A stretch of 64,000 nt of DNA, taken from positions 415,896,001 through 415,960,000 of the forward strand of contig NW_027362764.1 in the NCBI RefSeq assembly GCF_046119375.1, read 5' to 3'. Below, in pieces: positions 1,664-64,000 of this stretch; the stretch's first letter is position 1, and every line of letters starts with the position of its first letter. Under the pieces are notes generated by a model. It had not been told where the DNA came from, did no database searches, and worked only from the letters and a program-made list of their open reading frames with translations. The position numbers and the translations under genes are program-made. Origin of the DNA: Phyllobates terribilis (Eukaryota).

Positions 1664-3288
1664 CAGTACAGACCAAAAGTTTGGACACACCTCATTTAAA
1701 GATTTTTCTGTATTTTCATGACTATGAAAATTGTACATTCACACTGAAGGCATCAAAACTATGAATTAACACATGTGGAATTATATACTTAACAAAAAAG
1801 TGTGAAACAACTGAAAATATGTCTTATACTCTAGGTTCTTCAAAGTAGCCACCTTTTGCTTTGATGACTGCTTTGCACACTCTTGGCATTCTCTTGATGA
1901 GCTTCTAGAGGTAGTCACCGGAAATGGTTTTCACTTCACAGGTGTGCCCTGTCAGGTTTAATAAGTGGGATTTTTTTTGCCTTCTAAATGGGGTTGGGAC
2001 CATCAGTTGTGTTGTGCAGAAGTCTGGTGGATACACAGCTGATAGTCCTTCTGAATAGACTGTTAGCTGCTTTTTTCTTGCCAGAATACAAATTCTAAGT
2101 AAAGAAAAATGAGTAGCCATCATTACTTTAAGAAATGAAGGTCAGTCAGTGCGAAAAATTGGGAAAACTTTGAAAGTGTCCCCAAGTGCAGTTGAAAAAA
2201 CCATCAAGCACTACAAAGAAACTGGCTCACATGAGGACCGCCCCTGGAAAGGAAGAGCAAGAGTCACCTCTGCTTCTGAGGCTAAGTTTATCCGAGTCAC
2301 CAGCCTCAGAAATCGCAGGTTAACAGCAGCTCAGATTAGAGACCAGGTCAATGCCACACAGAGTTCTAGCAGCAGACACATCTCTACAACAACTATTAAG
2401 AGGAGACTTTGGGCAGCAGGCCTTCATGGTAAAATAGCTGCTAGGAAACCACTGCTAAGGACAGGCAACAAGTAGAAGAGACTTGTTTGGGCTAAAGAAC
2501 ACAAGGAATGGACATTAGACCAGTGGAAATCTGTGCTTTGGTCTGATGAGTCCAAATTTGAGATCTTTGGTTCCAACCACCATGTCTTTGTGCGACGCAG
2601 AAAAGGTGAACGGATGGACTCTACATGACTGGTTCTCACCGTGAAGCATGGAGGAGGAGGTGTGGGGATGCTTTGCTGGTGACACTGTTGGGGATTTATT
2701 CAAAATTGAGGGCATACTGAACCAGCATGGCTACCACAGCATCTTGCACCGGCATGCTATTCCATCCGGTTTGCGTTTAGTTGGACCATCATTTATTTTT
2801 CAACAGTACAATGACCCCAAACACACCTCCAGGCTGTGTAAGGGCTATTTGACCAAGAAGGAGAGGAGTGATGGGGTGCTATGCCAGATGACCTGGCCTC
2901 CACAGTCACCAGACCTGAACCCAATCGAGATGGTTTGGGGGTGAGCTGGACCGCAGAGTGAAGGCAAAAGGGCCAACAAGTGCTAAGCATCTCTGGGATC
3001 TCCTTCAAGATTGTTGGAAGACCATTTCCGGTGACTACCTCTTGAAGCTCATCAAGAGAATGCCAAGAGTGTGCAAAGCAGTCATCAAAGCAAAAGGTGG
3101 CTACTTTGAAGAACCTAGAGTATAAGACATATTTTCAGTTGTTTCACACTTTTTTGTTAAGTATATAATTCCACATGTGTTAATTCATAGTTTTGATCCC
3201 TTCAGTGTGAATGTACAATTTTCATAGTCATGAAAATATATAAAAATCTTTAAATGAGAAGGTGTGTCCAAACTTTTGGTCTGTACTG
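1664..3288 (+). mobile_element. Tc1/mariner family A, full length, disrupted transposase
   Basis: TA-flanked; ~265-bp TIRs starting CAGTACAGACCAAAAGTTTGGACACACC; fragments [27 protein letters not shown] with stops and frameshifts. Confidence 0.95.
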
Positions 3289-5453
3289 TATCTTTGAGAT
3301 GGTTTAGCTAGTTGAGATCTTGCCCGAGGCTTGTGAAGTCCAAATGGTTGTGGCACAGGTGTCTGATGCTTTGCAGACAGAGTGTACGGCTGAGGCTCAT
3401 AAAATGTTGGCCCACCAGTATCCACCACAGGCATGAGGGTAGTCAGATGTGGATATTGCTGGTTGGATGGTGGTGTTGGACGGACAGAAGAAGGGCTCAG
3501 GCATGTGCTGGTACTGATGGGTGTAGGCGGTGTTTGGCAACACGGAATAGGGAGCAGCCATGTGCTAATATCGATGGGTGTCTAGGGTTTTGTGGAACAG
3601 CAGAGGGTGCAGACATGTGCCGATAGGGTTGGGTTGCAGTTAGATTTACCGGCACAGAAGACCGTGTAGCAACATTTTGACCATGTGTACTGGACGTAGC
3701 AGATGGCCAGTTCGCCATTGTTCAATTGGTTCAAGAACCTGGTTTAGCTCCTGTGGTCCCTGGCTTGCATCATTGAGTGTCAGTATTGCAGCCCATACCT
3801 GTTCCTGACGTTCCTCTGGAACTTTTGCAAGACACGGAGACAGTGACCTACAACAGCGATCAACTGATGTTTGTGGTGTGATGAAATTGGTGATCGCAAG
3901 ACCCCAAGCATCAATCACCTCTGTCAGCATACGCAGGTCTTCCTGACGCCTGGTTCTTCTTCCTTGGACATTGGTGGCAATGATCTTTTTACGAATCTGT
4001 GTGGATGATGCCTGTGGTTGTGGTGCATTTTGTGTTTGGCCTGATGGTTGAGAACTTTCTTGTGTGCTTACTGGAGCAAGATCAGTGGAGGCTTCAGCAG
4101 CATCAGACACATCTTCAGCCTGTGCTTGTGGATTCTGGTCAGCTGGGGGGTCTGTCTCCGACGTTGATGTACATGTTGCGGATGGTTCTGCTCTTGTAGA
4201 TTCATCTGAGTCCTCCAGGTTGTCATCAGTTCTATGAGAAATTACATTGACAAGATATTATTGTAGGCATGATAAAATTTAGTCAAACATAAGTGTTGCC
4301 ATCTTTTAAATCATAGCAACAAAAGCTGGAGCGTCAGTTTAAAGGCCTTTACCATTATGAAGATCACAATTTTGACAGTGTACTTCTAACTTAACACATA
4401 TGTTTTTTATTAGGCACATAATCTGTATGTGTGTTTATGATTTAGATAATATACATTTATGAAACTAACAACTTATCATATCAGATTATGTTGTGCCTAA
4501 AATATAAAAAAAAACATACACAGTCACTTGCTGGTTGAGTTCCATTATTGGCTTGAGAAATGCTAAATTCTTATAGTAAACATGTCGCCTTTTTTTGGCG
4601 GCACCTGATGTCGTGGGTAGGGGAAGAAATTCTCGCCTGAACTGATCCCTCGCTGAGCGCCATCGCCGCTTTACAAAATCAACTGAAAGACAATAGTACG
4701 AAAAAATATGAGTGTACATGTTTAAAGTTGGTAAAAACAATTGCCTAATATACTATTTGTAAATTTAAAAAAAACTAGTTTTGCACACCTAATTCAATTG
4801 ATAAGTGAAAAATCATACATTTTAAAAGAAAAATCCTTTAAAATGTAAAAAGTATTAGAACTGAGTACTGTGGGACCAATTTAAGAAATGATGTCGGCAT
4901 TCATTTATATTTTGGGATAACATAAATGTAAACATTTATTTAATTTTTAAAGTGAAAACTTGGTTGAGGGACTCAGGGTAGGTAGGGAAAAATTTAAATA
5001 GTGGGTGCAGTAATGCATTATATGTGTGGCCCTGCCAGGGGCAATAAATGGTCAGTGTTTACAGAAACAGTGGAGATAACACACAAAAATAAGAAGCACA
5101 CAAAGGGTTAGTATTAGGTAAACTTTCACATTTGCATGGAGAACAATACCAGCCAGCACATGGCCACCTAATGGTTTTTACATGTTATGTTAAAACTTGG
5201 CACAGATATTATGGTTCCAAAATCCAAAAAGTCAATTAAAATTTAAGTAACCTTGCAACACACAGTTAACACATTGGATTATTTATGTGCAAATTTACCC
5301 ATAAAGGTAAAAATTAAAAAGCATCAAATTCAATATACTTATGGGGCAAAACAAGAAGAAGAAATTTCAAAAATACTAGCAGAAAGTTACAAGGCCATGG
5401 AAGGGAATTCAAAACAATATTGCACTTTGTTTTTGGTAAAAAATTGAAAGGTA

Positions 5454-11339: not shown

Positions 11340-12895
11340 ATAATAAATATTTATATATGTGTGTGTGTATATAATATCCCAAATGGGATGCATTTTTTTG
11401 CATATATTGGAGAAATCTTCAGCAATTTTTTTTTTGGCACAGATTGTGCATATTGTAACTTACATACTTCGCACCCGATGCAGTAAAGTACGTGATGTGC
11501 GTTAGTTAACAAAAAGTGTTTGATGTCTCGATAACTGTCATACGTAACATCATACATTTTTTTCTTTGCTGCATAAGAACAGACGTTACATCTATTACAC
11601 TCACGTTTGTAAAATCCTTGAGTGGTGAACCATTTTTTGGGGTATCTTTTTCAATAAAGAGGCTTTGTGATAGAATATTACCAAAAGATTTGCCTCTTTT
11701 AGCAACAAAACGGCATCCATTGTCAACAGTTTTTTTCTTTCAAAACCTCGTCCCGATGCAACAGAGGTAAGTATTTAATAACATTTTTTATTTCATTGAA
11801 CTGTGCTAAAAGCTGGTTTCACAGCTTTATATTTGAAGGGTTTTGCATCATATAATAGAGACTCTTTAGACATCAACCTGCCTTTCAGTAAGTGCACTGG
11901 AATTTTTGTTGTAGTCTTTGTTTCTATTTTTCTTTTGCATAAACTTGAGTATTGGAGCTAATTCGTTTAGCCCTAATAAATTCTCCATATGGAGTAGATT
12001 CAACTGTGTGCTTGGTGCTGACAACTAGTAGCTAACAGTATTGTGTTGCCAGATATTTTTTTCTTAAATATGGAGATATGTACCTGACTATTATAACAGC
12101 ATCCCCCAACCCAAAAAAATGTAATCCAAAAATGCACTACTGGTGGTGAGAAATCGTTGGTATTGAAATAGTTAATGAGATCTGGTACAACCTTCACTGC
12201 AACCTTACACACCATAAGTATGTCGTCCATGTATCGGCTAGATATTTAATTAATAAAAATGTTGTTACTAGAAAAAACAAATATTTTTTCCCACCACCCA
12301 ACATAAAGGATTGCTGTGAATGTCGAGAATCTTGATCCCATTGGCAATCCTTCATTTTGTAAAAAGGATTATTTATCAACATAAAGAAATTGTGACCAAT
12401 AAAATACTCGTCTGCAATCAGCTGGATTTCAGTGCACAGGAATAGGAACTGTGTTTGTTCAAATGTTATTTCAGGGCAACAAGTTCCTTATCATGGGGCA
12501 TACATGAGTAGAGGTTCACAATATCACTCACAACAAAAATGTGGTTGCGCCACTACACGAAGCCGTCCATGGCTTTAAAGACTATGAACTGTCCTTCAAA
12601 AAAAAACTGAAATCCTGCTGGCTAAAGGCTGCAGATTGTTGTCAGTCCAGGCAATGAGCCTCTCATCAAGAGCCCCAATGCCTGAGATGATAGAGCGTAA
12701 TGGAGGAGGGGAGACATCCATAGGAGTTTTTTTGCAGACTGTGGAAAATGGGTGTAATTGGCTGGGTGTTGCAAATAAGTTTTACAGAATTATTGCCTAA
12801 AACCTCTCAATTTTCGACCCTGCTTTAACATATCAATAAGAGTAGATGAAAACAGGATTGTGGGATCAGATTGTAATCTCCAATATGTTGCATTA
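11340..12895 (-). mobile_element. Penelope-like element (RT plus GIY-YIG remnant), decayed
   Basis: Minus-strand PIFHSL..PPPLRSIISGIG, DIVNLYSCMPHD and HVLYCIGCEVCKLQY (GIY-YIG-like); interrupted at 12896 by the capsid-NTD-only LTR element. Confidence 0.7.
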
Positions 12896-13382
12896 TGTAA
12901 TGCACACGCCCGGGCTGAGCGGCGTGTGCGTGTGATTCCACTGGACCGTGCCGGAGAGTGAATGCCTGGAGAGGCGTAACTAGGTATTCACCCGATCCGA
13001 CCAGGGTCGCACGACGGCATGCGACGCCAGTGCACCCAGGAGGAACCGAGCAGAGGGACCAGGTGCTACTCCAGGACAGACCCCGGACACGGCTGTTGAC
13101 CCACACAGGGGAATACAGGAACAGACTGGTTAGGCTGGCACACAGACTGGTGGGAATAGGCAGGCACGACTGGTATGCGGGCAGGCGGGTATGAAGGCAG
13201 GGGGGTACAGGCAAGCACGGCTAGAGTGCAGACAGGAAGGCACTAGCAGGCAGGAACACAGGCGGGATAGGACCCAGTACACACTGGGACTCTGGAACAG
13301 AACCACAGATGTGGCAGACAAACACAGCAAAGTGAGGCCGCCCAGAGAGGTGAGCGAGAGCAAGGCAGGACGAGACCGCCTG

Positions 13383-14027
13383 GAGCGGTGAGCAAGAGCA
13401 GAGCAGGACGAGACCGCCTGGAGCGGTGAGCAAGAGCAGAGCAGGACGAGACCGCCTGGAGCGGTGAGCAAGAGCAGAGCAGGACGAGACCGCCTGGAGC
13501 GGTGAGCAAGAGCAGAGCAGGACGAGACCGCCTGGAGCGGTGAGAAAGAGCAGAGCAGAACGAGACCTCCTGGAGCGGTGAGCAAGAGCAGAGCAGGACG
13601 AGACCGCCTGGAGCGGTGAGCAAGAGCAGAGCAGGACGAGACCGCCTGGAGCGGTGAGCAAGAGCAGAGCAGGACGAGACCGCCTGGAGCGGTGAGCAAG
13701 AGCAGAGCAGGACGAGACCGCCTGGAGCGGTGAGCAAGAGCAGAGCAGGACGAGACCGCCTGGAGCGGTGAGCAAGAGCAGAGTAGGACGAGACCGCCTG
13801 GAGCGGTGAGCAAGAGCAGAGCAGGACGAGACCGCCTGGAGCACTGAGCAAGAGCAGAGCAGGACGAGACCGCCTGGAGCGGTGAGCAAGAGCAGAGTAG
13901 GACGAGACCGCCTGGAGCGGTGAGCAAGAGCAGAGCAGGACGAGACCGCCTGGAGCGGTGAGCAAGAGCAGAGCAGGACGAGACCGCCTGGAGCGGTGAG
14001 CAAGAGCAGAGCAGGACGAGACTGCCG
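13383..14027. repeat. 38-bp minisatellite, 17 units
   Basis: Unit GAGCGGTGAGCAAGAGCAGAGCAGGACGAGACCGCCTG; starts at 13383 and recurs every 38 bp to 13991. Confidence 0.95.
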
Positions 14028-14319
14028 GAGCAGTGAGCAAAGGAGTCAGAGCGGAGCGAGACTGAGCAGGGGGAACAGGGCTCTGTTCACACGGAACAGA
14101 CAGGAAGGAAAAGGCAGAGCCAGATACCCACAAGGTACTTGCAGTGAAGTAGCGAGTGGACCACAAACACACAAACGGGAGTACAGAGACAACAAGCAGG
14201 AGTTAGGTACGAGTTCAGACTCTGCAGAAAATGGAAAGGAACGGACATAGAGGCAAAACAGGTAAAGGATAGGAGAGAGTTCAGACTGGAACTGAGTGTA
14301 CGGAAGAGACCGACACTGC

Positions 14320-14640
14320 AGCGGGATACAGGAGCGGGTCTGGGAATACGGCCCCCAGAGAGGCGGGACGAACAGGCAAGGAGCGTGTTCAGACAGGACA
14401 GACAAGATACAGGAGCGGGTCTAGGTAATCGGCCCCTAGAAGGCGGGAGGAACAGGCTAGGAGCGAGTTCAGACAGGACAGACAAGATACAGGAGCGGGT
14501 CTAGGTAATCGGCCCCTAGATGGCGTGAGGAACAGGCTAGGAGCAAGTTCAGACAGGACAGACAAGATACAGGAGCGGGTCTAGGTAATCGGCCCCTAGA
14601 AGGCGGGAGGAACAGGCTAGGAGCGTGTTCAGACAGGCCT
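14320..14640. repeat. 80-bp tandem repeat, about 4 units (mirrored at about 18180-18500)
   Basis: GACAAGATACAGGAGCGGGTCTAGG recurs at 14401, 14481 and 14561. Confidence 0.9.
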
Positions 14641-14986
14641 GGAAATACAGCCTCCAGGATAGGCAGACAAGAGAACACAGAACGGGACCTGGCACCTTCA
14701 GAGTGCAAGCACACACTGAATGAAACACAATGCTCAGGCAGGGATTGATTGGAGCAGCTGGGTTATATACCAGGTGACAGACAGCAATAGGCTGAGGACG
14801 CACAAGGGGTGTGAACCCCAGCAGGTACAAAAAGCAGGAAGTGATCGGGCGCCGCCCTTAAGCAGCAGAAACAGACACAAACAGACAGCATGGAGGGAAG
14901 CCAGAGAGACATTCTGGACTGGAGATCAAGTGTGCGCTCTTGCACAGTGGGAGATGGACCACCATGCAAGGGCGCCGCCAGGTATG

Positions 14987-16690
14987 TTACAGTACCCCCC
15001 CCTTACGCCCCCTCTTCTTCAGGCCTGCCAGAATCTTCCGCAGGGAATTCGAGGGCCAATCCTTCACTTCAAGGAGATCACTTCCACTGTCCACAGGAAA
15101 AACTGGTCTCATCTGGTTAGCTAGGATGCTACCTCCTATCCAGCCATCCTCAGCAACAGACGAAACGGGTGGAGTACCAGGAACAGCACACAAGGAAGTC
15201 TCTCTCCACATATTTTCAGGTGGCACCCCAGAGGGTACAGGAGACAACTTGAAGTCCTCCACCGGGTTGGAGGGGAGCAGAGACTTGGGGGTAAACTCTG
15301 CTTCGAGGTACATCTTGTCAAGCTCACAGGAAGAAATAGACGGGTTATCAGGTACAGGATGAGGAAAAATCACTGTCTCTTTGTTACCTGGTGGTACCCC
15401 GGAGGATTCAGGAAACAACTGGAGGTCCTCCGCCGGGTCAGAAGAGTGCAGAGGCTCAGAGAAAACATCTGCTTCAGAGTACACTAGGTCGGACTCACTG
15501 GACGAAGCAGGCGAGGTATCGGGTACCGAGTATAGGAAAGTCTCTGTCCATTCACCACCAGGTGGCACCCCGAAGGGTTCTGGAGACAACTGGAGGCCCT
15601 CCGCCCGGTCGGAGGGGTGTAGAGACTCGGGAGTAACCTCTGCTTTGGAGTACACTAGGTTGGACTTACTGGACGAAGCGAGCGAGGTATCAGGTACAGA
15701 GTATAGGAGAGTCTCTGTCCTTTCGCTACCAGGTAGCACCCCGAAGGGTTCTGGAGACAACTGGAGGTCCTCCGCCTGGTCGGAGGGGTGTAGAGACTCA
15801 GGGGTAACTACCACTTTGGGGTACCCATTGTCAGGCTCACAGGACGGAGCAGACAAAGTATCGAGTACCAGGTGTAGAGAAGTCTCTCTCCATTTGTCAT
15901 CGAGTGGTATCCCGGAGGATTCAGGAGGCAACTGGGGGTCCTCCGCCAGGTAGTAGAGGTGCACAGACTCTGAGGTAATCACAGCTTCGGAGCATCCTTG
16001 GACATGCACACCGGTTAAAGTGGGTGAAGCATCTGATGCCGGGTGCAGGAAGTTCTCCTGTGTGGAGTCTGGATGGGCAGTAGTCTCTTCGGGCAGGAGA
16101 ACTGGTGCACTACCCACGCACATTACCCGTTGGGGCTTCTCCGGGATACAGGGAGATGAAGCTTCAGTAGGAACTTCAAGGTTGGGGTCAGGAGGTCTCA
16201 GGGAGGACAGACCCTGGCGTGACGGCTTGCCTCTACGTCTAGCACGTCTGGACTGCCTCTTGAGGTTGGGAGAAGTATTCCGGAGAGCGTAGTCACCCTG
16301 TGAGGATTCTGGGTGGGCAGTAGTCTCATTGGGCTGGAGGACTATTGCGCTACCCACACACATTACCCATCGGGGCTGCTCCGGGATATTGGGAAGTGAA
16401 GCTTCAGCAGGAGCCTCCGGGTTAGGATCATCGAAGACCATTAGAAAGGCCACCAGGAAGGCCATTATGTCCAGGACGATAGGATCCTGTGTTTCCCATA
16501 GGGGATTGATCCATTCCAAGGCATCACCCGCTAGGTTAGACATAATGAATGCCACCTTAACCCGATCGGTGGGAAAACATAGAGGGTAGAACTTGAAGTG
16601 TAGCATGCATTGCTCCACAAATGCACGACTTTGTCTTGGATCCCCATAGTAATGTGGCGGATCCGCAGGAACGAGAGCAGATAGATCCAT
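14987..16690 (-). CDS. 567-aa Ty3/Gypsy capsid N-terminal domain (LDOC1/RTL/PEG10-like) fused to acidic Pro/Ser/Glu repeats
   Basis: N-terminus PPHYYGDPRQSRAFVEQC..FPTDRVKVAFIMSNLAGDALEW..FLMVFDDP aligns by eye with the chromovirus gag at 25705. Then two ~44-aa repeats, a basic stretch and about five 57-aa repeats; the stop lies inside the 3' LTR terminus. Confidence 0.85.
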   Translation of the reverse strand: MDLSALVPADPPHYYGDPRQSRAFVEQCMLHFKFYPLCFPTDRVKVAFIMSNLAGDALEWINPLWETQDPIVLDIMAFLVAFLMVFDDPNPEAPAEASLPNIPEQPRWVMCVGSAIVLQPNETTAHPESSQGDYALRNTSPNLKRQSRRARRRGKPSRQGLSSLRPPDPNLEVPTEASSPCIPEKPQRVMCVGSAPVLLPEETTAHPDSTQENFLHPASDASPTLTGVHVQGCSEAVITSESVHLYYLAEDPQLPPESSGIPLDDKWRETSLHLVLDTLSAPSCEPDNGYPKVVVTPESLHPSDQAEDLQLSPEPFGVLPGSERTETLLYSVPDTSLASSSKSNLVYSKAEVTPESLHPSDRAEGLQLSPEPFGVPPGGEWTETFLYSVPDTSPASSSESDLVYSEADVFSEPLHSSDPAEDLQLFPESSGVPPGNKETVIFPHPVPDNPSISSCELDKMYLEAEFTPKSLLPSNPVEDFKLSPVPSGVPPENMWRETSLCAVPGTPPVSSVAEDGWIGGSILANQMRPVFPVDSGSDLLEVKDWPSNSLRKILAGLKKRGRKGGVL

Positions 16691-16831
16691 CTGGACGGGT
16701 GCGTAATTAGCCAGGAACTCAGCTAGAGAAAAAAAAATTGTATTTATTTATTTTTAATGCATGTATTCTCTGGAAAACGTCTCAGAGAGCGAAGGCCGTG
16801 GGGCTCAACGGGAACCATGGCCTGAGCATGC

Positions 16832-18851
16832 TGTAATGCACACGCCCGGGCTGAGCGGCGTGTGCGTGTGATTCCACTGGACCGTGCCGGAGAGTGAATG
16901 CCTGGAGGGGCGTAACTAGGTATTCACCCGATCCGACCAGGGTCGCACGACGGCATACGACGCCAGTGCACCCAGGAGGAACCGAGCAGAGGGACCAGGT
17001 GCTACTCCAGGACAGACCCCGGACACGGCTGTTGACCCACACAGGGGAATACAGGAACAGACTGGTTAGGCTGGCACACAGACTGGTGGGAATAGGCAGG
17101 CACGACTGGTATGCGGGCAGGCGGGTATGCAGGCAGGGGGGTACAGGCAAGCACGGCTAGAGTGCAGACAGGAAGGCACTAGCAGGCAGGAACACAGGCG
17201 GGATAGGACCCAGTACACACTGGGACTCTTGAACAGAACCACAGATGTGGCAGACAAACACAGCAGAGTGAGGCCACCCAGAGAGGTGAGCGAGAGCAAG
17301 GCAGGACGAGACCGCCTGGAGCGGTGAGCAAGAGCAGAGCAGGACGAGACCGCCTGGAGCGGTGAGCAAGAGCAGAGCAGGACGAGACCATCTGGAGCGG
17401 TGAGCAAGAGCAGAGCAGGACGAGACCGCCTGGAGCGGTGAGCAAGAGCAGAGCAGGACGAGACCGCCTGGAGCGGTGAGCAAGAGCAGAGCAGGACGAG
17501 ACCGCCTGGAGCGGTGAGCAAGAGCAGAGCAGGACGAGACCGCCTGGAGCGGTGAGCAAGAGCAGAGCAGGACGATACCGCCTGGAGCGGTGAGCAAGAG
17601 CAGAGCAGGACGAGACCGCCTGGAGCGGTGAGCAAGAGCAGAGCAGGACGAGACCGCCTGGAGCGGTGAGCAAGAGCAGAGCAGGACGAGACCGCCTGGA
17701 GCGGTGAGCAAGAGCAGAGCAGGACGAGACCGCCTGGAGCGGTGAGCAAGAGCAGAGCAGGACGAGACCGCCTGGAGCGGTGAGCAAGAGCAGAGCAGGA
17801 CGAGACCGCCTGGAGCGGTGAGCAAGAGCAGAGTAGGACGAGACCGCCTGGAGCGGTGAGCAAGAGCAGAGCAGGACGAGACTGCCGGAGCAGTGAGCAA
17901 AGGAGTCAGAGCGGAGCGAGACTGAGCAGGGGGAACAGGGCTCTGTTCACACGGAACAGACAGGAAGGGAAAGGCAGAGCCAGATACCCACAAGGTACTT
18001 GCAGTGAAGTGGCTAGTGGACCACAAACACACAAACGGGAGTACAGAGACAACAAGCAGGAGTTAGGTACGAGTTCAGACTCTGCAGAAAAAGGAAAGGA
18101 ACGGACATAGAGGCAAAACAGGTAAAGGATAGGAGAGAGTTCAGACTGGAACTGAGTGTACGGAAGAGACCGACACTGCAGCGGGATACAGGAGCGGGTC
18201 TGGGAATACGGCCCCCAGAGAGGCGGGACGAACAGGCAAGGAGCGTGTTCAGACAGGTCAGACAAGATACAGGAGCGGGTCTAGGTAATCGGCCCCTAGA
18301 AGGTGGGAGGAACAGGCTAGGAGCGAGTTCAGACAGGACAGACAAGATACAGGAGCGGGTCTAGGTAATCGGCCCCTAGATGGCGGGAGGAACAGGCTAG
18401 GAGCAAGTTCAGACAGGACAGACAAGATACAGGAGCGGGTCTAGGTAATCAGCCCCTAGAAGGCGGGAGGAACAGGCTAGGAGCGTGTTCAGACAGGCCT
18501 GGAAATACAGCCTCCAGGATAGGCAGACAAGAGAACACAGAACGGGACCTGGCACCTTCAGAGTGCAAGCACACACTGAATGAAACACAATGCTGAGGCA
18601 GGGATTGATTGGAGCAGCTGGGCTATATACCAGGTGACAGACAGCAATAGGCTGAGGACGCACAAGGGGTGTGACCCACAGCAGGTACAAAAAGCAGGAA
18701 GTGATCGGGCGCCGCCCTTAAGCAGCAGAAACAGACACAAACAGACAGCATGGAGGGAAGCCAGAGAGACATTCTGGACTGGAGATCAAGTGTGCGCTCT
18801 TGCACAGTGGGAGATGGACCACCATGCAAGGGCGCCGCCAGGTATGTTACA
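16832..18851 (-). repeat. 5' LTR (2020 bp) of the capsid-NTD-only element
   Basis: TG..CA termini; 15 units of the 38-bp repeat (17319-17887); TATA-like box at 18629-18623. Confidence 0.92.
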
Positions 18852-18966
18852 CATTACTGCCCATAATACTGAAGGGAAGGACATTTTTTTTCATATAAAT
18901 ACGAGAGAGAGGGGCAAGGGTAAGAATCTTGTATCTTGTAGATATCTGTTGCTTTGTCTAGATATA

Positions 18967-20595
18967 CAGTACAGACCAAAAGTTTGGACACACCTTCTCA
19001 TTTAAAGATTTTTCTGTATTTTCATGACTATGAAAATTGTACATTCACACTCAAGGCATCAAAACTATGAATTAACACATGTGGAATTATATACTTAACA
19101 AAAAACTGTGAAACAACTGAAAATATGTCTTATATTCTAGTTTCTTCAAAGTAGCCACTTTTTGCTTTGTTGACTGCTTTGCACACCCTTGCATTCTCTT
19201 GATGAGCTTCAAGAGGTAGTCACTGGAAATGGTCTTCCAACAATCTTGAAGGAGCTCCCAGAGATGCTTAGCACTTGTTGGCCCTTTTGCCTTCACTCTG
19301 CGGTCCAGCTCACCCCAAACCATCTCGATTGGGTTCAGGTCTGGTGACTGTGGAGGCCAGGTCATCTGGCGTAGCACCCCATCACTCTCCTTCTTGGTCA
19401 AATAGCCCTTACACAGCCTGGAGGTGTGTTTGGGGTCATTGTCCTGTTGAAAAATAAATGATGGTCCAGCTAAACGCAAACTGGATGGAATAGCATGCCT
19501 CTGCAAGATGCTGTGGTAGCCATGCTGGTTCAGTATGCCTTCAATTTTGAATAAATCCCCAACAGTGTCACCAGCAAAGCACCTCCACACCATCACACCT
19601 CCTCCTCCATGCTTCACGGTGGGAACCAGGCATGTAGAGTCCATCCGTTCACCTTTTCTGCGTCGCACAAAGACACGGTGGTTGGAACCAAAGATCTCAA
19701 ATTTGGACTCATCAGATCAAAGCACAGATTTCCACTGGTCTAATGTCCATTCCTTGTGTTCTTTAGCCCAAACAAGTCTCTTCTGCTTGTTGCCTGTCCT
19801 TAGCAATGGTTTCCTAGCAGCTATTTTACCATGAAGGCCTGCTGCACAAAGTCTCCTCTTAACAGTTGTTGTAGAGATGTGTCTGCTGCTAGAACTCTGT
19901 GTGGCATTGACCTGGTCTCTAATCTGAGCTGCTGTTAACCTGCGATTCCTGAGGCTGGTGACTCGGATAAACTTATCCTCAGAAGCAGAGGTGACTCTTG
20001 GTCTTCCTTTCCTGGGGCGGTCCTCATGTCAGCCAGTTTCTTTGTAGCGCTTGATGGCTTTTGCAACTGCACTTGGGGACACTTTCAAAGTTTTCCCAAT
20101 TTTTTGCACTGACTGACCTTCATTTCTTAAAATAATGATGGCCACTCATTTTTCTTTACTTTGCTGCTTTTTTCTTGCCATAATACAAATTCTAACAGTC
20201 TATTCAGTAGGACTATCAGCTGTGTATCCACCATACTTCTGCACAACACAACTGATGGTCCCAACCCCATTTATAAGGCAAGAAATCCCACTTATTAAAC
20301 CTGACAGGGCACACCTGTGAAGTGAAGACCATTTCCGGTGACTACCTCTTGAAGCTCATCAAGAGAATGCCAAGAGTGTGCAAAGCAGTCATCAAAGCAA
20401 AAGGTGGCTACTTTGAAGATCCTAGAATATAAGACATATTTTCAGTTGTTTCACACTTTTTTGTTAAGTATATAATTCCACATGTGGTAATTCATAGTTT
20501 TGATGCCTTCAGTGTGAATGTACAATTTTCATAGTCATGAAAATACAGAAAAATCTTTAAATGAGAAGGTGTGTCCAAACTTTTGGTTTGTACTG
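18967..20595 (-). mobile_element. Tc1 family A, full length, frameshifted
   Basis: TA flanks, same TIRs as 1664-3288; ORF 19087-19668 with QQDNDPKH and SPDLNPIE. Confidence 0.95.
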
Positions 20596-20886
20596 TAGAT
20601 GTTAAAACACAAACATTACTATTCGCATAATTGTAAAACATGCTTCACTCAATGTATTGTTTTCAAGCATATATACCACAGCTTGAAATAATTATGTTTA
20701 TTAAGTACTCACATGCGATTGGTTCATATGGGTTTTATATACTCTCCCATGACTCTTTGATTTAAACTGAGTACGGGCGTTATTGTTACGCCAGGAACGC
20801 TTCAGTCTTTCATGGCTTTCATGTGAACCTCTCTTGTGTGCCGCTCTTTTTCTCTATATGTATCTTAGAACTACATATGTGGATAA

Positions 20887-25235: not shown

Positions 25236-28200
25236 TGTTAGAACCTTGCTGTTAGTTTTTTTTCCTTTGCTGGTCACATGACCTTGTTGGCCTATTTAAT
25301 CCTGCTCCGCCCTTCTGGCTTTGCTGGACTTCATTGTATATCTACTTTCTAGCTAGCCTGTGCTCTGTATCTAACTCTGTTAGTTTGCTTGGTCTACGGA
25401 CCTCTATGTTCTATCTATTTTGTTTGTTCGTCTGTCTGCTACTATTTCTGTTAGGAGGTGTCCCATATTCCTCCCAGTCCTTAGTACTTGTAGGGATTCC
25501 CTCCCCACATCTATAGGTCTCCGTACAGACTAGATTAGGACTTTAGCAGGTCTGATCGCAGGATCAGGTTCCCTGTTACATCGTAGGGATTCAGCTGAGT
25601 CCTATAGTAGGGACAGATCTCCTCTCTTTCCTTAGCTTTGGTAGCAGAACATAACAGTAAGTCCAGCCAGCAAATTCTCTAAGGAAAGATTTTTCTGTTC
25701 CATCATGGTGTCGGTTCAGGATTTGGCTCATCGCCTGCAGGGACTCTCTCTGGAGGTGGCCGAGCTCCGTCAGCACGTGAGTAACTGTCCTGGAGCACAT
25801 TTCTTGGAGCCTAAGGTATGTTTGCCGGATTTATTTTTTGGTGAACACCGAGAATTTTTTTCATTTAAAAATGCTTGCTTATTGTATTTTCGTTTGAGAC
25901 CTAAGTCCTCTGGGGATGAATCCCAGCGCGTAGGGTTCATAATGTCACTTTTGCGCAAAGAGCCTCAGGAGTGGGCCTTTTCTTTGCAACCTAGTGATTC
26001 ATGCTTCAGATCAGTGGATAGTTTTTTTTCTGCTTTGGGACTATTATATGATGATCCTGACCGTGTCGCATCAGCTGAGACTGAGTTGAGACGTTTAAAA
26101 CAAGGATCAGGTAATGTGGAAAAATATTGTACACATTTTCGTCGTTGGTCCACTCAAACAGGGTGGAACGATTCTGCTCTGAAAAGTCTATTTCTTGCTG
26201 GGCTCAGTGAAAGGGTTAAAGACCTGCAAATTGCTTATCCTACACCTGAGGATTTGCAACAGGCTATGCAATTAGCTATACGGGTGGATAGAAGACTGCG
26301 TGCTAGGGTTAATGAGAGCAAATCCTCTGCTATGTCAGTTTCTGGTTATGATAATGTGTGTACTAACAATGGTGAACCGATGGAGATTGGATCGGTGGCA
26401 CCTCGCTCTCAAGAAAAAGACCGTCGTTTTTCGGAAGGCTTGTGTTTCTATTGCGGAAAATCTGGTCATTTGATTAAAGGCTGTGAGCTTCGTATGAAGA
26501 AAGAAAAAAAAATGGTCAGTCACGCCCGTATTGCCTGTTTAAATTCCAAGGGTATATTTTTAGCTGCTTCCACGATTGCTCAGGAAAAATTAATGGAATT
26601 TCGGGTGTTTGTTGATTGCGGGTCTACACTGAATGTTATTGATGGGGGATTCGTGGAAAAACTCAATTTAAAACCTGAACCTTTATCATCCCCCATTGCT
26701 GTGGTTTCTGTGGATGGTTCCCCTTTGAAGAATATTACTCTCAAGGTCAGTGAATTTCCTCTCACTATTAATGGTGTTCACCATGAGAAATTGGATTTGG
26801 TAGTGTTGAATAACTTGCCTTCTCCAGTAATATTGGGTTTGCCCTGGTTAAAATTTCACAATCCTGTACTGGATTGGTCTACCAGTGAAATTAAATCCTG
26901 GAGCCATAAATGTTATGACAAGTGTTGTAACGGGCGTATTGCAGCTTTGGATAGGGGAGAATTGCCTGTTCCTATTCAGGATTTTTGGAGAGTTTTTTCT
27001 GAGAAAGAATCGCAGGTTTTGCCTCCCCATAGAGACTATGATTGTTCTATTGAATTTGTCCCTGGAGCGACTCTTCCTAAAAGTCGTTTATTTAACCTTA
27101 CTATTCCTGAGAGGAAGGCTTTGGAGGAATACATACAGACAAGCTTGGCCGCCGGTCACATTAGGCCCTCTAAGTCTCCTGTGGCGGTTGGATTTTTTTT
27201 TGTAAAAAAAAAGGACGGCGGTTTACGTCCTTGTCTGGATTTTCGTGAGATTAACAAAATTACGGTACGCAATCCTTACCCACTGCCATTGATTCCTGAT
27301 CTGTTTAACCAGTTATTGGGGGCCAAGTGGTTCTCTAAAATTGACCTTAAGGGGGCATACAATCTGTTGCGCATGAAGGAGGGTGATGAATGGAAGACTG
27401 CTTTTAACACTCCTGTGGGTCATTTTGAGAATCTGGTTATGCCTTTTGGTCTTACTAATGCTCCTGCATTTTTTCAGAATCTGATTAATGACATCCTTAG
27501 ACCTTTGATCGGTAAAAATGTGGTTGTGTATTTGGATGACATTTTGATTTATTCGCCAGATCTGGAGTCTCATTGGCGGAGCGTGCGTGAGGTATTACAG
27601 TTATTAATGGACAATTCGCTTTTTGCTAAGCTGGAGAAATGTGAGTTCGCTGTACAGAGAATTAGTTTTTTGGGCTACATTATCTCCAGCAAAGGTTTTG
27701 AGATGGATCCGGTTAAGGTTCAGGCTGTGCAGGAATGGCCTAGGCCTATTGGTTTGAAATCGATACAGAGGTTTTTGGGTTTCGCCAATTACTATAGAAA
27801 ATTCATAAAAAATTTTTCTAGTATTGTCAAACCTCTGACTGATCTCACCAGGAAAGGTGCTGATGCGGTTCAGTGGTCTTCTGAGGCCATTGAAGCTTTT
27901 GTGTATCTCAAAGAGAGGTTCACCTCTGCTCCCATCCTTATGCAGCCTGATGTTACTAGGCCGTTTTTGGTTGAGGTTGATGCTTCCTCTGTGGGGGTTG
28001 GCGCAGTATTGTCTCAGGATAACGGGGATGGATTACATCCCTGTGCCTTTTTTTCAAAAAAATTTTCGGAGACTGAATTGAATTACGATATTGGTAATCG
28101 GGAATTATTGGCTATTAAACTCGCATTTGAACACTGGCGCCACTTCTTGGAAGGTGCGGAATTTCCCGTTCAGGTTCTTACGGATCATAAAAATCTGATA

Positions 28201-30205
28201 TATCTTGATGCTGCCAAGCGCCTGAATGCCCGTCAGGCTAGGTGGGCACTGTTTTTCTCGCGGTTTAATTTCTCCGTTACTTACATCCCTGGTACTAAGA
28301 ATGTTAAGGCGGATGCCTTGTCTCGCAGTTTTTCTCCCATAGTCGGTGCTGAGAAAGAGGAAAACATTTTACAAGAAGGTGTTGTGATAGCTGCTTTAGA
28401 CTCCGTTTTGGAAGATGAGATTCTTAAAGCTCAGGAGAATGCCCCATCTAACACTCCTCATGGGAGGTTGTTTGTGCCTGGGACCTTTAGGAGAGATTTG
28501 TTTGTTGAGTGTCACGAATCTCGGTTGGCAGGTCATCCCGGAATCTCTGAGACCAAGAGACTGGTGGGTCGCAGTTTTTGGTGGCCTGGATGGCAGAAGG
28601 AAGTCATTAAGTGGGTGCGCCAATGTACTATATGTGCTAGATCTAAGTCCTCACATACTCCTGCTGCGGGGTTGCTTTGTCCTTTGGAGGTCCCCAGTGC
28701 TCCTTGGACACATTTGGCTATGGACTTTATAACTGACCTTCCCCCCTCTGAGGGTTTTACTGTCATCTGGGTGGTCGTGGACCGTTTTAGCAAGATGTGT
28801 CACTTGGTTCCCTTCGTCAAACTGCCCTGCGCTAAAACTCTCGCTAAGGCCTTTGTCAAGGAAATTGTCAGACTTCATGGCGTTCCTACTGACATTGTTT
28901 CTGATAGGGGTCCTCAGTTCGTGGCTCGTTTTTGGCGTGCCTTTTGTGACAGGTTGGGAATTCATTTGTCGTTTTCGTCCGGATATCATCCTGAATCTAA
29001 TGGCCAGACAGAAAGGAAAAACCAGGATGTTGAGCAGTTCTTGCGTTGTTTTGTGGCAGACAATCAAGAGGGGTGGTCTGAGTTTCTGCCACTTGCCGAA
29101 TTTGCTCTGAACAATCATACATCTTCTTCTGCTGGTTGTTCGCCTTTTTTTTGTTGTTCTGGGAGACATCCGTCGTTTGGGTCGTTCTCCAAGTTGGGAT
29201 CTGCCGTGCCTGAGGAGGAGAATTTTTCCGGTGATTTGGAAAGAGTTTGGACGGATGTGCGTGGTAATCTTCAGGAGGCCAACAGAAAATCTAAAGACTA
29301 CTTTGATAGGAAACGACAGGAGGTTTTGTTCGCTGTTGGTGACATGGTTTGGTTGTCCTCTAGGAATCTGCGGTTGAGGATTCCTTCTAAGAAATTGGGT
29401 CCCAAGTTTGTAGGGCCCTTTAAGGTGCTTCAGGTTGTCAACCAATCTGCTGTTAGGTTGGAGGTTCCTACCTCCTGGAGAATTAATCCGGTCTTTCATG
29501 TCTCTCTGTTAAAAAAAGCTGTTGTGTCGGATGGTGACGCCTCTGCCTCTGTTCCTCCGGTGGTGGAGGACGGGGAATATGAAATTTCTCGCATCCTTGA
29601 CTCTAGACGGTATAGAGGTAGTTTGCAGTATCTTGTGGCCTGGAAAGGTTTCGGACCCGAGGATAACTCTTGGGTGAGGTCAGATGATGTTTCCGCGTCC
29701 AGACTTATCAGAGCGTTTCACAGGAGATTTCCTGATAAGCCTGGTCCTAGGGGATCCGGAGGATCCTCTTAGAAGGGGGGGTACTGTTAGAACCTTGCTG
29801 TTAGTTTTTTTTCCTTTGCTGGTCACATGACCTTGTTGGCCTATTTAATCCTGCTCCGCCCTTCTGGCTTTGCTGGACTTCATTGTATATCTACTTTCTA
29901 GCTAGCCTGTGCTCTGTATCTAACTCTGTTAGTTTGCTTGGTCTACGGACCTCTATGTTCTATCTATTTTGTTTGTTCGTCTGTCTGCTACTATTTCTGT
30001 TAGGAGGTGTCCCATATTCCTCCCAGTCCTTAGTACTTGTAGGGATTCCCTCCCCACATCTATAGGTCTCCGTACAGACTAGATTAGGACTTTAGCAGGT
30101 CTGATCGCAGGATCAGGTTCCCTGTTACATCGTAGGGATTCAGCTGAGTCCGATAGTAGGGACAGATCTCCTCTCTTTCCTTAGCTTTGGTAGCAGAACA
30201 TAACA
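25236..30205 (+). mobile_element. Apparently intact Ty3/Gypsy chromovirus (Tf1/sushi group)
   Basis: 421-bp LTRs (25236-25656, 29785-30205) with one visible mismatch; TSD GCTGG; PPT AGAAGGGGGGGTAC; single uninterrupted ORF. Confidence 0.97.
25705..29772 (+). CDS. Gag-Pol polyprotein: CA, CCHC knuckle, protease, RT, RNase H, integrase, chromodomain
   Basis: CFYCGKSGHLIKGC; VDCGS; YLDDILIYS; EVDAS..TDHKNL; H..GHPG..C..C; DRGPQF..E; YLVAWKGFGPEDNSW. Confidence 0.97.
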   Translation: MVSVQDLAHRLQGLSLEVAELRQHVSNCPGAHFLEPKVCLPDLFFGEHREFFSFKNACLLYFRLRPKSSGDESQRVGFIMSLLRKEPQEWAFSLQPSDSCFRSVDSFFSALGLLYDDPDRVASAETELRRLKQGSGNVEKYCTHFRRWSTQTGWNDSALKSLFLAGLSERVKDLQIAYPTPEDLQQAMQLAIRVDRRLRARVNESKSSAMSVSGYDNVCTNNGEPMEIGSVAPRSQEKDRRFSEGLCFYCGKSGHLIKGCELRMKKEKKMVSHARIACLNSKGIFLAASTIAQEKLMEFRVFVDCGSTLNVIDGGFVEKLNLKPEPLSSPIAVVSVDGSPLKNITLKVSEFPLTINGVHHEKLDLVVLNNLPSPVILGLPWLKFHNPVLDWSTSEIKSWSHKCYDKCCNGRIAALDRGELPVPIQDFWRVFSEKESQVLPPHRDYDCSIEFVPGATLPKSRLFNLTIPERKALEEYIQTSLAAGHIRPSKSPVAVGFFFVKKKDGGLRPCLDFREINKITVRNPYPLPLIPDLFNQLLGAKWFSKIDLKGAYNLLRMKEGDEWKTAFNTPVGHFENLVMPFGLTNAPAFFQNLINDILRPLIGKNVVVYLDDILIYSPDLESHWRSVREVLQLLMDNSLFAKLEKCEFAVQRISFLGYIISSKGFEMDPVKVQAVQEWPRPIGLKSIQRFLGFANYYRKFIKNFSSIVKPLTDLTRKGADAVQWSSEAIEAFVYLKERFTSAPILMQPDVTRPFLVEVDASSVGVGAVLSQDNGDGLHPCAFFSKKFSETELNYDIGNRELLAIKLAFEHWRHFLEGAEFPVQVLTDHKNLIYLDAAKRLNARQARWALFFSRFNFSVTYIPGTKNVKADALSRSFSPIVGAEKEENILQEGVVIAALDSVLEDEILKAQENAPSNTPHGRLFVPGTFRRDLFVECHESRLAGHPGISETKRLVGRSFWWPGWQKEVIKWVRQCTICARSKSSHTPAAGLLCPLEVPSAPWTHLAMDFITDLPPSEGFTVIWVVVDRFSKMCHLVPFVKLPCAKTLAKAFVKEIVRLHGVPTDIVSDRGPQFVARFWRAFCDRLGIHLSFSSGYHPESNGQTERKNQDVEQFLRCFVADNQEGWSEFLPLAEFALNNHTSSSAGCSPFFCCSGRHPSFGSFSKLGSAVPEEENFSGDLERVWTDVRGNLQEANRKSKDYFDRKRQEVLFAVGDMVWLSSRNLRLRIPSKKLGPKFVGPFKVLQVVNQSAVRLEVPTSWRINPVFHVSLLKKAVVSDGDASASVPPVVEDGEYEISRILDSRRYRGSLQYLVAWKGFGPEDNSWVRSDDVSASRLIRAFHRRFPDKPGPRGSGGSS

Positions 30206-31087
30206 GCTGGAGTGTGTCAGCAGTTCCTGCAAGATGAAGGCATTGAAACTATGGACTGGCCCGCCCGTTCCCCAGACCTGAATCCGATTGAGCACATCTG
30301 GGACATCATGTCTCGCTCCATCCACCAACGTCACGTTGCACCACAGACTGTCCAGGAGTTGGCGGATGCTTTAGTCCATGTCTGGGAGGAGATTCCACAG
30401 GAGACCATCCGCAACCTCATCAGGAGCATGCCCAGGCATTGTAGGGAGGTCATACAGGCACGTGGAGTCCACACACAATACTGAGCCTCATTTTGACTTG
30501 TTTTAAGGACATTACATCAAAGTTGGATCAGCCTGTAGTGTGTTTTTCCACTTTAATTTTGGGGGTGACTCCAAATCCAGGCCTCCATTGGTTAATAAAT
30601 TTGATTTCCATTGATGATTTTTGTGTGATTTTGTTATCAGCACATTCAGCTTTGTACAGAACAAAGTATTCAATGAGAATATTTCATTCATTCAGATCTA
30701 GGATGTGTTATTTGAGTGTTCCCTTTATTTTTTTGAGCAGTGTATTTTCACACTCCTCAACATTGAAATTGCAATACCAAGAAGGAATAGTCGCAGAGTT
30801 TTGAAAATCACAGGATCAATAGATATGTTAATGATATGTAAATGATGAAAAATGGAAACAAAATTTTCCAAACATCTCAATTTATTCAGTATTGAATATG
30901 AGCACGAAGCACAGAAATTTACACACTTTGGTATGTTATCAATGAGGTTATTGCAATTTCAAGTGCAATGAAATAACGAAACAATCACAATTCCGCAATT
31001 GTTGTTATAATATATATATATATATATATTTATTTTTTTTTACAAAATTGATTATCGATTACTTTTAACGTATTTTTCGGACTTTAA

Positions 31088-49063: not shown

Positions 49064-49099
49064 TATATATAGATATATATATATTTATATCTGTATATA

Positions 49100-57869: not shown

Positions 57870-58233
57870 TCTGGCGCCCCCCTAGCTAACCGTGGCCTAC
57901 CTTCTATTCTTTTCTTCCGGTAGGCCGCAGCTCCGCAGGTGACGGTCGTCTTCAGGACCTTGCGTCGCTTGCGTCCTACGTCAGAGCGTTCAGCAACGCT
58001 CCTTACAGGACCTGGCGCTTCCTGGTTTGACGTCGAGGCGTGGGGCGTGTCCGGGGCTTCGTTCTCTTTTGCAGGTACGCCCCTCATTTTCCCGCGGTTA
58101 CTCCCTTCTTCTCGCTCGGCGGCCCAACAATGGTGGCAATCTTCACCACAGTTAAAACACACAGTTTCTGATTAAAGGCGCACAGTACCCGGTGGCAACG
58201 GACGCAACACTCCGTCGTTGCAGCGGGCACGGG

Positions 58234-58251
58234 ATCCTGTTCGTGACGCCA
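58234..58251 (-). promoter_or_regulatory. Primer-binding site, probably tRNA-Ser(CGA)
   Basis: TGGCGTCACGAACAGGAT, 7 nt after the 5' LTR; complementary to the vertebrate tRNA-Ser(CGA) 3' end as I recall it (not database-checked). Confidence 0.7.
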
Positions 58252-61348: not shown

Positions 61349-64000
61349 TGTTATGCACACGCCCGGACTGACTGGTGTGTGCGGGAGAAGTGGTTCCACT
61401 GGACCATGAACCGGAGAGTGCCTGGAGGGGCGTGACTAAGTATCTGGCCGATCCGACCAAGGTGGCACGACGGCATACGACGCCAGTGCACCAGGGAGAA
61501 ACCGGGCAGAGGGACCAGGTGCTACTCCAGGTCAAACTCCGGACACGGGGGTTGACCCACACAGGGATTACTGGAACAGGCAGGTTAGGCTGGCTCAGAC
61601 TGGTGGATATAAGCGAACACGGCAGGTATGCAGACGGGTGGATACAGGCGAGTATGCAGGCAGGGAGGTACTGGCAGAAAGGACGGGCTGGAGCTCAGAG
61701 AGGACAAGGCCCAGTACAGACTGGGACACAGAAACAGAACCGCAGATGCGGTAGCCAAACACAGCAGAGAGGGAACGCCCGAAGCGGTGGGCAAGAGCAG
61801 AGCAGGACGGGACTGCCGGAGCAGCGAGCACAAGCAGAGCAGGACAGGACTGCCGGAGCAGCGAGCAGATGCAGAGCTGGACGGGGCTGCCGGAGCAGCG
61901 AGCAGAAGCAGAGCAGAAACCGCAGGAGCGGCAAGCAAGGCAAGAGCAGAGTGGAAACCGCAAGAGCGGTAAACAAGGCAGGAGCAGAGCGGAAACCGCA
62001 GAGCGGCTAAGAAGGCCGCAGCAGAGCGGAAACCGTAGAGCGGAAAACAAGGCAGGAGCAGAGCGGAAACCGCAGAGCTGCTAAGTAGGCAGGAGCAGAG
62101 CGGAAACCGCAGAGCGGTAAACAAGGCAGGAGCAGAGCGGAAACCGCAGAGCGGTAAACAAGGCAGGAGCAGAGCGGCTAAGAAGGCAGGAGCAGAGCGG
62201 AAACCGCAGAGCGGCAAACAAGGCAGGAGCAGAGCGGAAACCGCAGAGCGGCAAACAAGGCAGGAGCAGAGCGGAAACCGCAGGAGCAGCAAGCAAGGCA
62301 AGAGCAGAGCAGAAACCGCAAGAGCGGCAAGCTAAGCAGGAGCGGAGAGGAAACCGCAGAGCGGTAAACAAGGCAGGAGCAGAGCGGAAACCGCAGAGCG
62401 GCAAACAAGGCAGGAGCAGAGCGGGAACCGCAGAGCGGCAAACAAGGCAGGAGCAGAGCGGGAACCGCAGAGCGGCAAACAAGGCAGGAGCAGAGCGGGA
62501 ACCGCAGAGCGGCAAACGAGACAAGGCAAGGAGATAGGACTCTGTTCACAAAGAACAGACAGAGAAGGAAAGGCAGAACCAGAAGCACACAAAGTACTTG
62601 CAAAGAAGTAGCGAGCGTACACTAAATTCACAACAGAGGTACAGAGACGATGAGAAGGAATTTAGGAGCAAGTTCAGACTCTGCAGAAAGGCGCAGAAAA
62701 CAGGCATAGAGGGAAAAGGGAGAAAAGGCTAAAGTAGAAACGAGGCGCAGACAACTGGGAACAGAGGAACGGGAACAAATACAGCAAGGCTGGGACACAA
62801 ACAGGACTCTGTTCAGACGGGAACAGATACCGCAAGGCACAGACAACTGGAAACAGAGGAACGGGAACAAATACAGCAAGGCTGGGACACAAACAGGACT
62901 CTGTTCAGACGGGAACAGATACCGCAAGGCACAGACAGGCAGATCTAGGAATACAGCCCCTAGAAGGCGAAAGAACAGGCTAGAAGCGTGTTCACAAGAA
63001 CAGACCACAGTTCAGACACAGAACTGGAGAACAGGCAGGAAAACAGGATAGGACCTGGCACGTCAGAGACAAAAAGCCAACTGACAGGACACAATGCTCA
63101 GGCGCCATCTTGAGGAAGAAGGTGGTATAAATACCCAAAGATGGACAGCAATAGGCTGAAGGTGCAACAGGGGCGTGTCCGCAGCAGGTACAAGAAACAG
63201 GAAGTTCAGCGGGCGTCGCCCTATGCAGCCAAAACAGACAAACAGACAGCAAGGAGGGAAGCCAGAGAGACATTCTGGACTGGAGATCAAGTGCGCGCTC
63301 TTGCACAGTGGAAGATGGACCACCATGCAAGGACGCTGCCAGGTATGTTACAGTACCCCCCCCCCATTACGCCCCCTCTTCTTCAGGCCTGCCAGAATCT
63401 TCCGCAGGGAATTCGAGGACCAGTCGTTCACTTCAAGGAGATCACTTCCACTGTCCACAGGAAAATTGATCTCATCTGGTTAGCTAGGATGCTACCTCCT
63501 ATCCAGCCATCCTTAGCAACAGACGAAACGGGTGGAGTACCAGGAACAGCACACAAAGGAGTCTCTCTCCACATATTTTCAGGTGGCACCCCAGAGGGTA
63601 CAGGAGACAACTGGAAGTCCTTCACCGGGTTGGAGGGGGACAGAGACTTGGGGGTAATCTCTGCTTCGAGGTACATCTTGTCAAGCTCACAGGAAGAAAT
63701 AGACGGGTTATCAGGTACATAATGAGGAAAAGTCACTGTCTCTTTGTTATCTGGTGGTACCCCGGAGAATTCAGGAAACAACTGGAGGTCCTCCGCCGGG
63801 TCAGAAGAGTGCAGAGGCTCAGAGAAAACATCTGCTTCAGAGTACACTAGGTCGGACTCACTGGAGGAAGCAGGCGAGGTATCGGGTACCGAATATAGGA
63901 AAGTCTCAGTCCATTCACCACCAGGTGGCACCCCGAAGGGTTCTGGAGACAACTGGAGGTCCTCCGCCTGGTCAGAGGGGTGTAGAGACTCATGGGTAAC
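61349..64000 (-). mobile_element. Second, diverged subfamily of the capsid-NTD-only LTR element (3' LTR 61349-63352 plus ORF C-terminus; rest outside the window)
   Basis: Same LTR ends and PPT; ORF 63428-63952 nearly identical to the 57-aa repeats of 14987-16690; LTR arrays are a 37-bp unit and a ~92-bp unit. Confidence 0.9.

Follow-up and report, generated by a model that had tools for sequence, protein, structure and literature searches.

A pol-less LTR retrotransposon of Phyllobates terribilis that is probably self-primed across a kilobase-scale loop

The stretch of Phyllobates terribilis DNA that was analysed (64,000 nucleotides; hereafter the window) contains, in minus-strand orientation, an LTR retrotransposon of 5.96 kb that lacks pol, has LTRs of 2 kb and a target-site duplication (TSD) of 5 bp, and contains one ORF opening with a capsid fragment. 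It belongs to a family that we call A, and shares the window with part of a second, diverged family A copy and with an autonomous element, B. The features used below are listed by window position; “loop” denotes the sequence from the predicted transcript start up to the primer-binding site (PBS).

18852..18856, minus strand: upstream copy of the 5-bp TSD, TAATG
16832..18851, minus strand: 5′ LTR, 2,020 bp, TG...CA
18623..18629, minus strand: TATA-like box of the 5′ LTR, TATATAG (putative function)
18590..18599, minus strand: nucleotides 1-10 of the predicted transcript (self-primer) in the 5′ LTR, with one mismatch to the PBS at 18595 (putative start site)
18185..18497, minus strand: 80-bp tandem array, 3.9 copies, within the loop
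17281..17922, minus strand: 38-bp tandem array, 16.8 copies, within the loop
16869..16875, minus strand: LTR arm of a candidate outer helix across the PBS (predicted only; 7/7 pairs, G-U allowed, in 81/86 copies)
16838..16865, minus strand: predicted 9-bp hairpin at the LTR 3′ end, adjoining the PBS
16820..16829, minus strand: PBS, 10 nt, with a 2-nt spacer from the 5′ LTR and no initial TGG (identical in 30/30 loci)
16811..16817, minus strand: leader arm of the candidate outer helix, overlapping the first ATG 3′ of the PBS
14987..16747, minus strand: one uninterrupted frame of 586 aa between stops, with an ATG at 16690 and no pol
14992..15020, minus strand: polypurine tract (PPT), its end common to autonomous family G
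12896..14991, minus strand: 3′ LTR, 2,096 bp
14763..14769, minus strand: TATATAA of the 3′ LTR
14730..14739, minus strand: perfect PBS complement in the 3′ LTR
12891..12895, minus strand: downstream copy of the TSD, TAATG
61349..63352, minus strand: 3′ LTR of the second-subfamily copy, whose PBS and 5′ LTR lie outside the window (locus L101)
63094..63103, minus strand: the same 10-mer in the second copy
25236..30206, plus strand: autonomous element B, a chromovirus with 422-bp LTRs (TATA at 25293, 9-nt primer at 25323-25331, PBS at 25659-25667, loop of 336 nt)

The open frame consists of an N-terminal capsid piece (PF16297) followed by acidic 171-bp repeats. About 90 nt past the PBS, at 16723-16765 (minus strand), an A-rich and then T-rich stretch with AATAAA and an acceptor-like AG interrupts the frame that starts at the first ATG; it was found in 13/13 copies printed, with varying run lengths, and might represent a splice acceptor, a poly(A) site used prematurely or the remnant of an old insertion. 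Among the rows listed from assembled contigs of presumed RNA runs, none had a splice joint at the acceptor-like site near 16723, which counts neither for nor against its use.

A sequence-only reading of this window had drawn attention to a 10-mer in the LTR that is complementary to the PBS, and all of its coordinates hold base for base on recomputation. In the 3′ LTR, the complement at 14739-14730 is perfect and lies 30 nt past TATATAA (14769), while the 5′ LTR copy (18599-18590), behind TATATAG (18629), carries a single mismatch at 18595, and the second copy has the same 10-mer at 63103-63094, 30 nt past TATTTATA (63133). That the PBS is complementary to the element’s own LTR is confirmed. 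The spacing, given as exactly 30 nt after TATA, is so in the window copies and widens to 30-32 nt across families; 30 nt is the ordinary Pol II TATA-to-start distance. Of the 1,809 internal 10-mers, no more than 4 are perfectly complementary to any part of the LTR, so a match 30 nt past TATA is not due to chance. In both window copies the perfect match is restricted to the 3′ LTR, the 5′ LTR of the second copy also having one mismatch in the 10-mer. This is not typical of the family: the upstream 5′ site is perfect in 52/54 copies in which it was located (60 were examined, six of them without a located site), and the exact 10-mer is found upstream in 59/64 family A copies. As copies were selected by an intact PBS, conservation of the PBS itself follows by construction, but that of the upstream site does not.

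Family A is abundant in the 10.6-Gb assembly. A pattern spanning the junction of LTR end and PBS matched 9,243 times, versus 0 for the reversed control, and the first 100 matches listed all had the family A PBS. Sixty copies, 20 found by similarity and 40 by position, all of them required to have an intact PBS, were examined further. Identical 5-bp TSDs surround 54 of the 55 testable copies, and the features generally expected of an LTR retrotransposon, namely TG...CA LTRs, a PPT, a 5-bp TSD and matching LTRs in young copies, were all found. U3 spans 246-252 nt in copies with a located site. The two LTRs are equally long in 13/18 copies with no more than one substitution between them, and differ by at least 30 nt in 36/58 copies overall; since young copies are mostly equal and the overall set often unequal, LTR duplication is normal, with array length likely to drift after insertion.

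Among the 60 copies, no intact one contains pol, pol matches at 12 loci all lying outside the element or in an antisense insertion, and the frame stays open to the 3′ LTR in 42/56 copies. The only profile that the ORF matched, above the cut-off, was PF16297; PF03732 and PF19259, both matched by the Gag of family G, were not, and the family A Gag is therefore regarded as partial. A search of PDB sequences with the capsid piece gave no matches, and a homolog search confined to proteins of near-equal length gave 88 candidates, none significant, while the 150 matches of the Gag protein search were all 96-100% identical. In one lineage (L081, L093-L095, L098-L100), the capsid fragment is deleted directly past the PBS, several copies having a common downstream junction. 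At two places (G000:C11:330316442-330325012 and C13:184907247-184915643), three Gag matches follow each other about 4 kb apart, consistent with head-to-tail arrays with common LTRs. The top PF03732 matches (L151-L180) lie on small contigs, such as G000:C5587 and C4373, and were not used; seven of them were translated, and the proteins resemble plant Athila/Tat Gags, which, on small unplaced contigs, suggests plant contamination in the assembly.

We then compared primer and PBS across related families, which were retrieved by a PF16297 search and by a PPT pattern, the latter yielding copies not chosen by their PBS, including those of subfamily A3 and family G. The covariation that self-priming predicts was found: seven homologous families or subfamilies have seven distinct 10-nt PBSs, each of which pairs fully only with its own site (10/10, as opposed to 5-9/10 with the sites of other families). 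Paired changes affect five of the ten positions, namely 3, 4, 6, 8 and 10 of the primer, with two kinds of change at position 4, and one of them sets the long-LTR subfamily A3 apart from A1 and A2. In every family the PBS lies 2 nt past the LTR and the complementary site 30-32 nt past a TATA-like box, and all primer sites are preceded by a pyrimidine. Primer sites were found by searching for PBS complements in families that are themselves related, so that the perfect diagonal and the corresponding permutation figure of 1 in 5,040 arise partly by construction; the independent fact is where the complementary sites land. Pairing is perfect in 10/15 rows of A3 and in 16/20 copies of G, whereas all five sampled copies of family C have 1-2 mismatches; families H and D2 are represented by a single locus each. 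Element B is itself intact, with a single 1,375-aa frame, LTRs 99.8% identical, the TSD GCTGG and a 9-bp self-priming signature of its own, and near-identical copies of it are inserted at other loci (L032, L111, L120).

These paired changes bear directly on conventional priming, in which a host tRNA or tRNA fragment would anneal to the PBS and the LTR match would be incidental. A TGG-starting stretch does lie 14 nt past the LTR end, and over 8 nt it seems to resemble a tRNA-Glu PBS; however, it forms the context of the ATG, and it differs in G and in some A copies. The PBS proper has no initial TGG, and its best match to tRNA-Lys extends over 5-6 nt in 65/65 genes, in a tRNA comparison covering tRNA-Lys(UUU) genes only. 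Above all, the PBS shifts between families in step with its own LTR site, which an invariant host RNA cannot explain. Covariation thus largely refutes tRNA priming, which we consider very improbable.

An element without pol would depend on enzymes supplied by another, and the chromodomain-bearing autonomous family G is the likely helper, judging from sequence relationships. It encodes RT, RNase H, integrase, SH3_Tf2-1 and Chromo domains, its gag and pol frames overlap, and a majority of 20 copies have long pol frames; the chromodomain, absent from the window element, which has no integrase, is present in G as well as in element B. Families G and A have in common the PPT end, the LTR start and an ATG 1 nt past the PBS, and a pattern common to G and A3 matched the genome 23,607 times, versus once for the control. 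The G Gag is the closest to that of A (47-52% identity over about 90 aa), and the two are sisters in a Gag tree that omits one of 19 intended rows, for which no match was obtained, with support of 92/93, below the strict cut. We infer the A-G partnership rather than read it off the LTRs, because these share almost no alignable sequence. Furthermore, the G primer differs from that of A at 2/10 positions (from that of A3 at one), and the helper would therefore need to cut a duplex of another sequence. When a helper was sought by the same PBS combined with an altered base in the leader, 20 of the 24 matches were examined, and all 20 were variants of family A.

In the fission yeast Tf1, the PBS is flanked by helices in a “pretzel”, the outer arm of which joins the LTR end to the leader (bioRxiv 10.1101/2022.12.06.519325). 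When the RNA was folded from the predicted start to the PBS end, the first eight primer/PBS pairs formed with a predicted probability of 0.97-1.0 even at loop lengths of 1,033 and 1,811 nt; besides this central duplex, an LTR-end hairpin is predicted for family A. Among the predicted duplexes, a helix between LTR and leader that spans the PBS is the best one in the autonomous families B, D1, D2, E, F and H. Its 7-bp counterpart can form in the 81/86 family A copies mentioned above, with a 6-bp version in 20/23 G/H copies, and its central bases are swapped on both sides between A and G/H, if the two LTR arms are indeed homologous. In A and G, other duplexes rank above the PBS-proximal outer helix, which comes 5th to 31st among some 300-370 windows in A and 42nd of 157 in G; local folds of A differ between copies and do not surpass shuffled sequences in stability (z of -0.8 to -1.0). 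Adding 60 nt of leader removed the primer duplex from nested folding of D1, D2 and E; this is expected, since the pretzel is a pseudoknot, and was counted neither way. In all family A subfamilies tested, the leader (16797-16810) has its best predicted partner in a conserved segment that lies some 225 nt ahead of the LTR end (16990-17050, minus strand), and the two could possibly form a second outer helix, in which no covariation was seen.

The same duplex might exist for translation or packaging, for instance by bringing the cap beside the AUG 3′ of the PBS, with priming achieved in another way. Such a role would fit the ATG located 1 nt past the PBS in A and G, and the 1-2-kb leader of A with its 1-11 upstream ATGs. 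Nevertheless, 2 nt past the LTR end is the position for priming, and the element has no second PBS; the duplex is kept in B, D, E and F although their ATG is further off, and in family A the first ATG opens a frame of only about 24 codons. We regard this alternative to priming as unlikely, although the two roles are not mutually exclusive.

What sets family A apart is the length of the loop. The sequence-only reading had proposed a loop of about 1.8 kb, which is borne out by the 1,770 nt that separate the predicted start (18599) from the PBS in the window, but its contrast with about 0.35 kb was overdrawn, as autonomous relatives in the same genome have loops ranging from about 200 to 1,063 nt: about 200 nt in D1, 336 in B, 526 in D2, 649 in H, 665-667 in F, mostly 545-751 in E, and 680-1,063 in G. 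Loops of the non-autonomous A3 measure 995-1,671 nt, with one of 2,564 nt, and those of family A 1,033-2,243 nt, with a median of 1,657 nt, about twice the length in the likely helper. The family A range is the top of a continuum that starts at about 200 nt, and it is the length that is unusual. The loops are filled with A-poor tandem repeats.

Splicing of an LTR intron could in principle shorten the loop before self-priming, and the loop is indeed pyrimidine-rich, with many acceptor-like sites. Yet the five copies inspected for donors have no strong one (the best scored 2.7 bits with a rough matrix), none of the top donors is common to both subfamilies, and new insertions retain the full loop in both LTRs, so that we find it hard to credit such an intron.

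An unusually long minus-strand strong-stop DNA, which had been deduced from the long loop, does not follow from it. Twelve poly(A) hexamers were sought between the start and the LTR end, and none was found in 58/59 copies, nor in B or C. With no poly(A) signal in the loop, R could be long, and transfer could then take place early. The matching LTRs of young copies require plus-strand synthesis to cover the 1.3-2.5-kb LTR in full, a requirement that does not extend to the minus-strand strong stop. For comparison, retroviral R is given as 15-250 nt (PMC12789967), while AATAAA is reported close to the 3′ end of Sushi LTRs, which would mean a long R and possibly early transfer (PMC3601003). Four loci (L188, L192, L209 and L214) have mosaic LTRs, in which a tract from the other subfamily lies in the loop and is identical in both LTRs; it comprises at least 28 consecutive other-subfamily sites within the last 430 nt of the LTR and ends 61 nt before the LTR end. 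These few events fit template switching early in minus-strand synthesis (PMC6894440), and ancestral gene conversion fits equally well.

Taken as a whole, the data argue for self-priming as in Tf1 by a pol-less element with a capsid fragment, the enzymes for which would probably be borrowed from a related autonomous chromovirus family; we assign this reading a probability of about 0.85 on the basis of sequence comparisons. Of what the sequence-only reading had claimed, Tf1-like priming is well supported by covariation in seven families or subfamilies, by the lack of TGG at the PBS start, by the chromovirus-type helper and Gag and by the candidate outer helix, and the strong-stop deduction falls away. 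Pol II would start at the first G of the 10-mer, and nucleotides 1-10 of the transcript would anneal to the PBS across the loop, with short helices beside the PBS stabilizing the junction. RT/RNase H of the helper would cut after about nucleotide 10 and then extend the freed primer, and the minus-strand DNA would or would not run through the whole loop before transfer, depending on the length of R. The priming structure would need only the RNA 5′ end and some 100-250 nt around the PBS, and the intervening loop may therefore be free to grow by repeat expansion.

A bolder proposal, which we put forward only tentatively and consider rather doubtful as a whole, is that self-priming is indifferent to distance and works in trans, with the helper RNase H cutting a primer of foreign sequence out of a duplex that closes a loop of up to 2.2 kb. 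Almost the whole loop would then be R, there being no poly(A) signal in the LTR, and minus-strand DNA could transfer to the 3′ copy shortly after it is begun; the loop would be a freely growing and recombining minisatellite compartment, by which the genome has gained tens of megabases.

Self-priming is stated to be a hallmark of the Tf1/sushi group of yeasts and vertebrates (PMC6317226, PMC4600332), as the sequence-only reading had assumed; according to these sources it has been demonstrated for the fission-yeast Tf1, and for vertebrate elements is “implicated” or predicted only. The element is best classed as a non-autonomous derivative of a Tf1/sushi-type chromovirus. With this group (Tf1, Tf2, Tj1, Tosmo, sushi-ichi and Amn; the GyDB V-clade) family A shares a PBS complementary to the predicted transcript start just past TATA, candidate flanking helices, TG...CA LTRs and a 5-bp TSD; its Gag is related to chromovirus Gags, and a chromodomain as well as an overlap of the gag and pol frames are found in its likely helper. 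Unlike these elements, it has no pol, and its outer helix is weak or ambiguous. Its LTRs of 1.3-2.5 kb compare with a mean of 572 nt in a Sushi LTR training set, which has AATAAA near the LTR 3′ end (PMC3601003), a motif absent from the family A LTR. Plant TR-GAG and LARD elements are described as similar in their long LTRs, a Gag-derived ORF only, no enzymes, a length of over 4 kb and high copy number (PMC13570524), whereas family A lives in a vertebrate host, has only the N-terminal capsid part recognisable and has a self-priming signature in which 2/10 positions are unlike those of the likely helper (one in A3). Tcn1 chromoviruses and plant TAR copia elements, in which LTR/PBS complementarity predicts self-priming for 83% and 89% of elements, respectively, are autonomous (PMC6317226), while family A is not. 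A literature search, mostly of papers outside subscription, found no pol-less self-primed vertebrate element and no loops of over 1 kb.

The mechanism itself is not new; new are the loop length, in a quantitative sense, and, as evidence, the natural compensatory series formed by seven primer/PBS pairs with loops of about 200-2,243 nt. As the families are very young and high in copy number, they allow direct tests, in a vertebrate, of the mechanism, of its tolerance of distance and of its operation in trans. In practical terms, tens of thousands of elements in the Phyllobates terribilis genome will escape any PBS detection that relies on tRNAs.

The window also contains other mobile elements. 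Tc1/mariner-like transposons with long inverted repeats occupy positions 1651-3291, 18962-20600, 46938-48134 and 49086-50734, one of them beginning 110 nt from the 5′ LTR, and at 51071-59380 on the minus strand lies another, distinct element of gypsy type, whose LTRs measure 1.1 kb and whose Gag is of PNMA/CCHC type.
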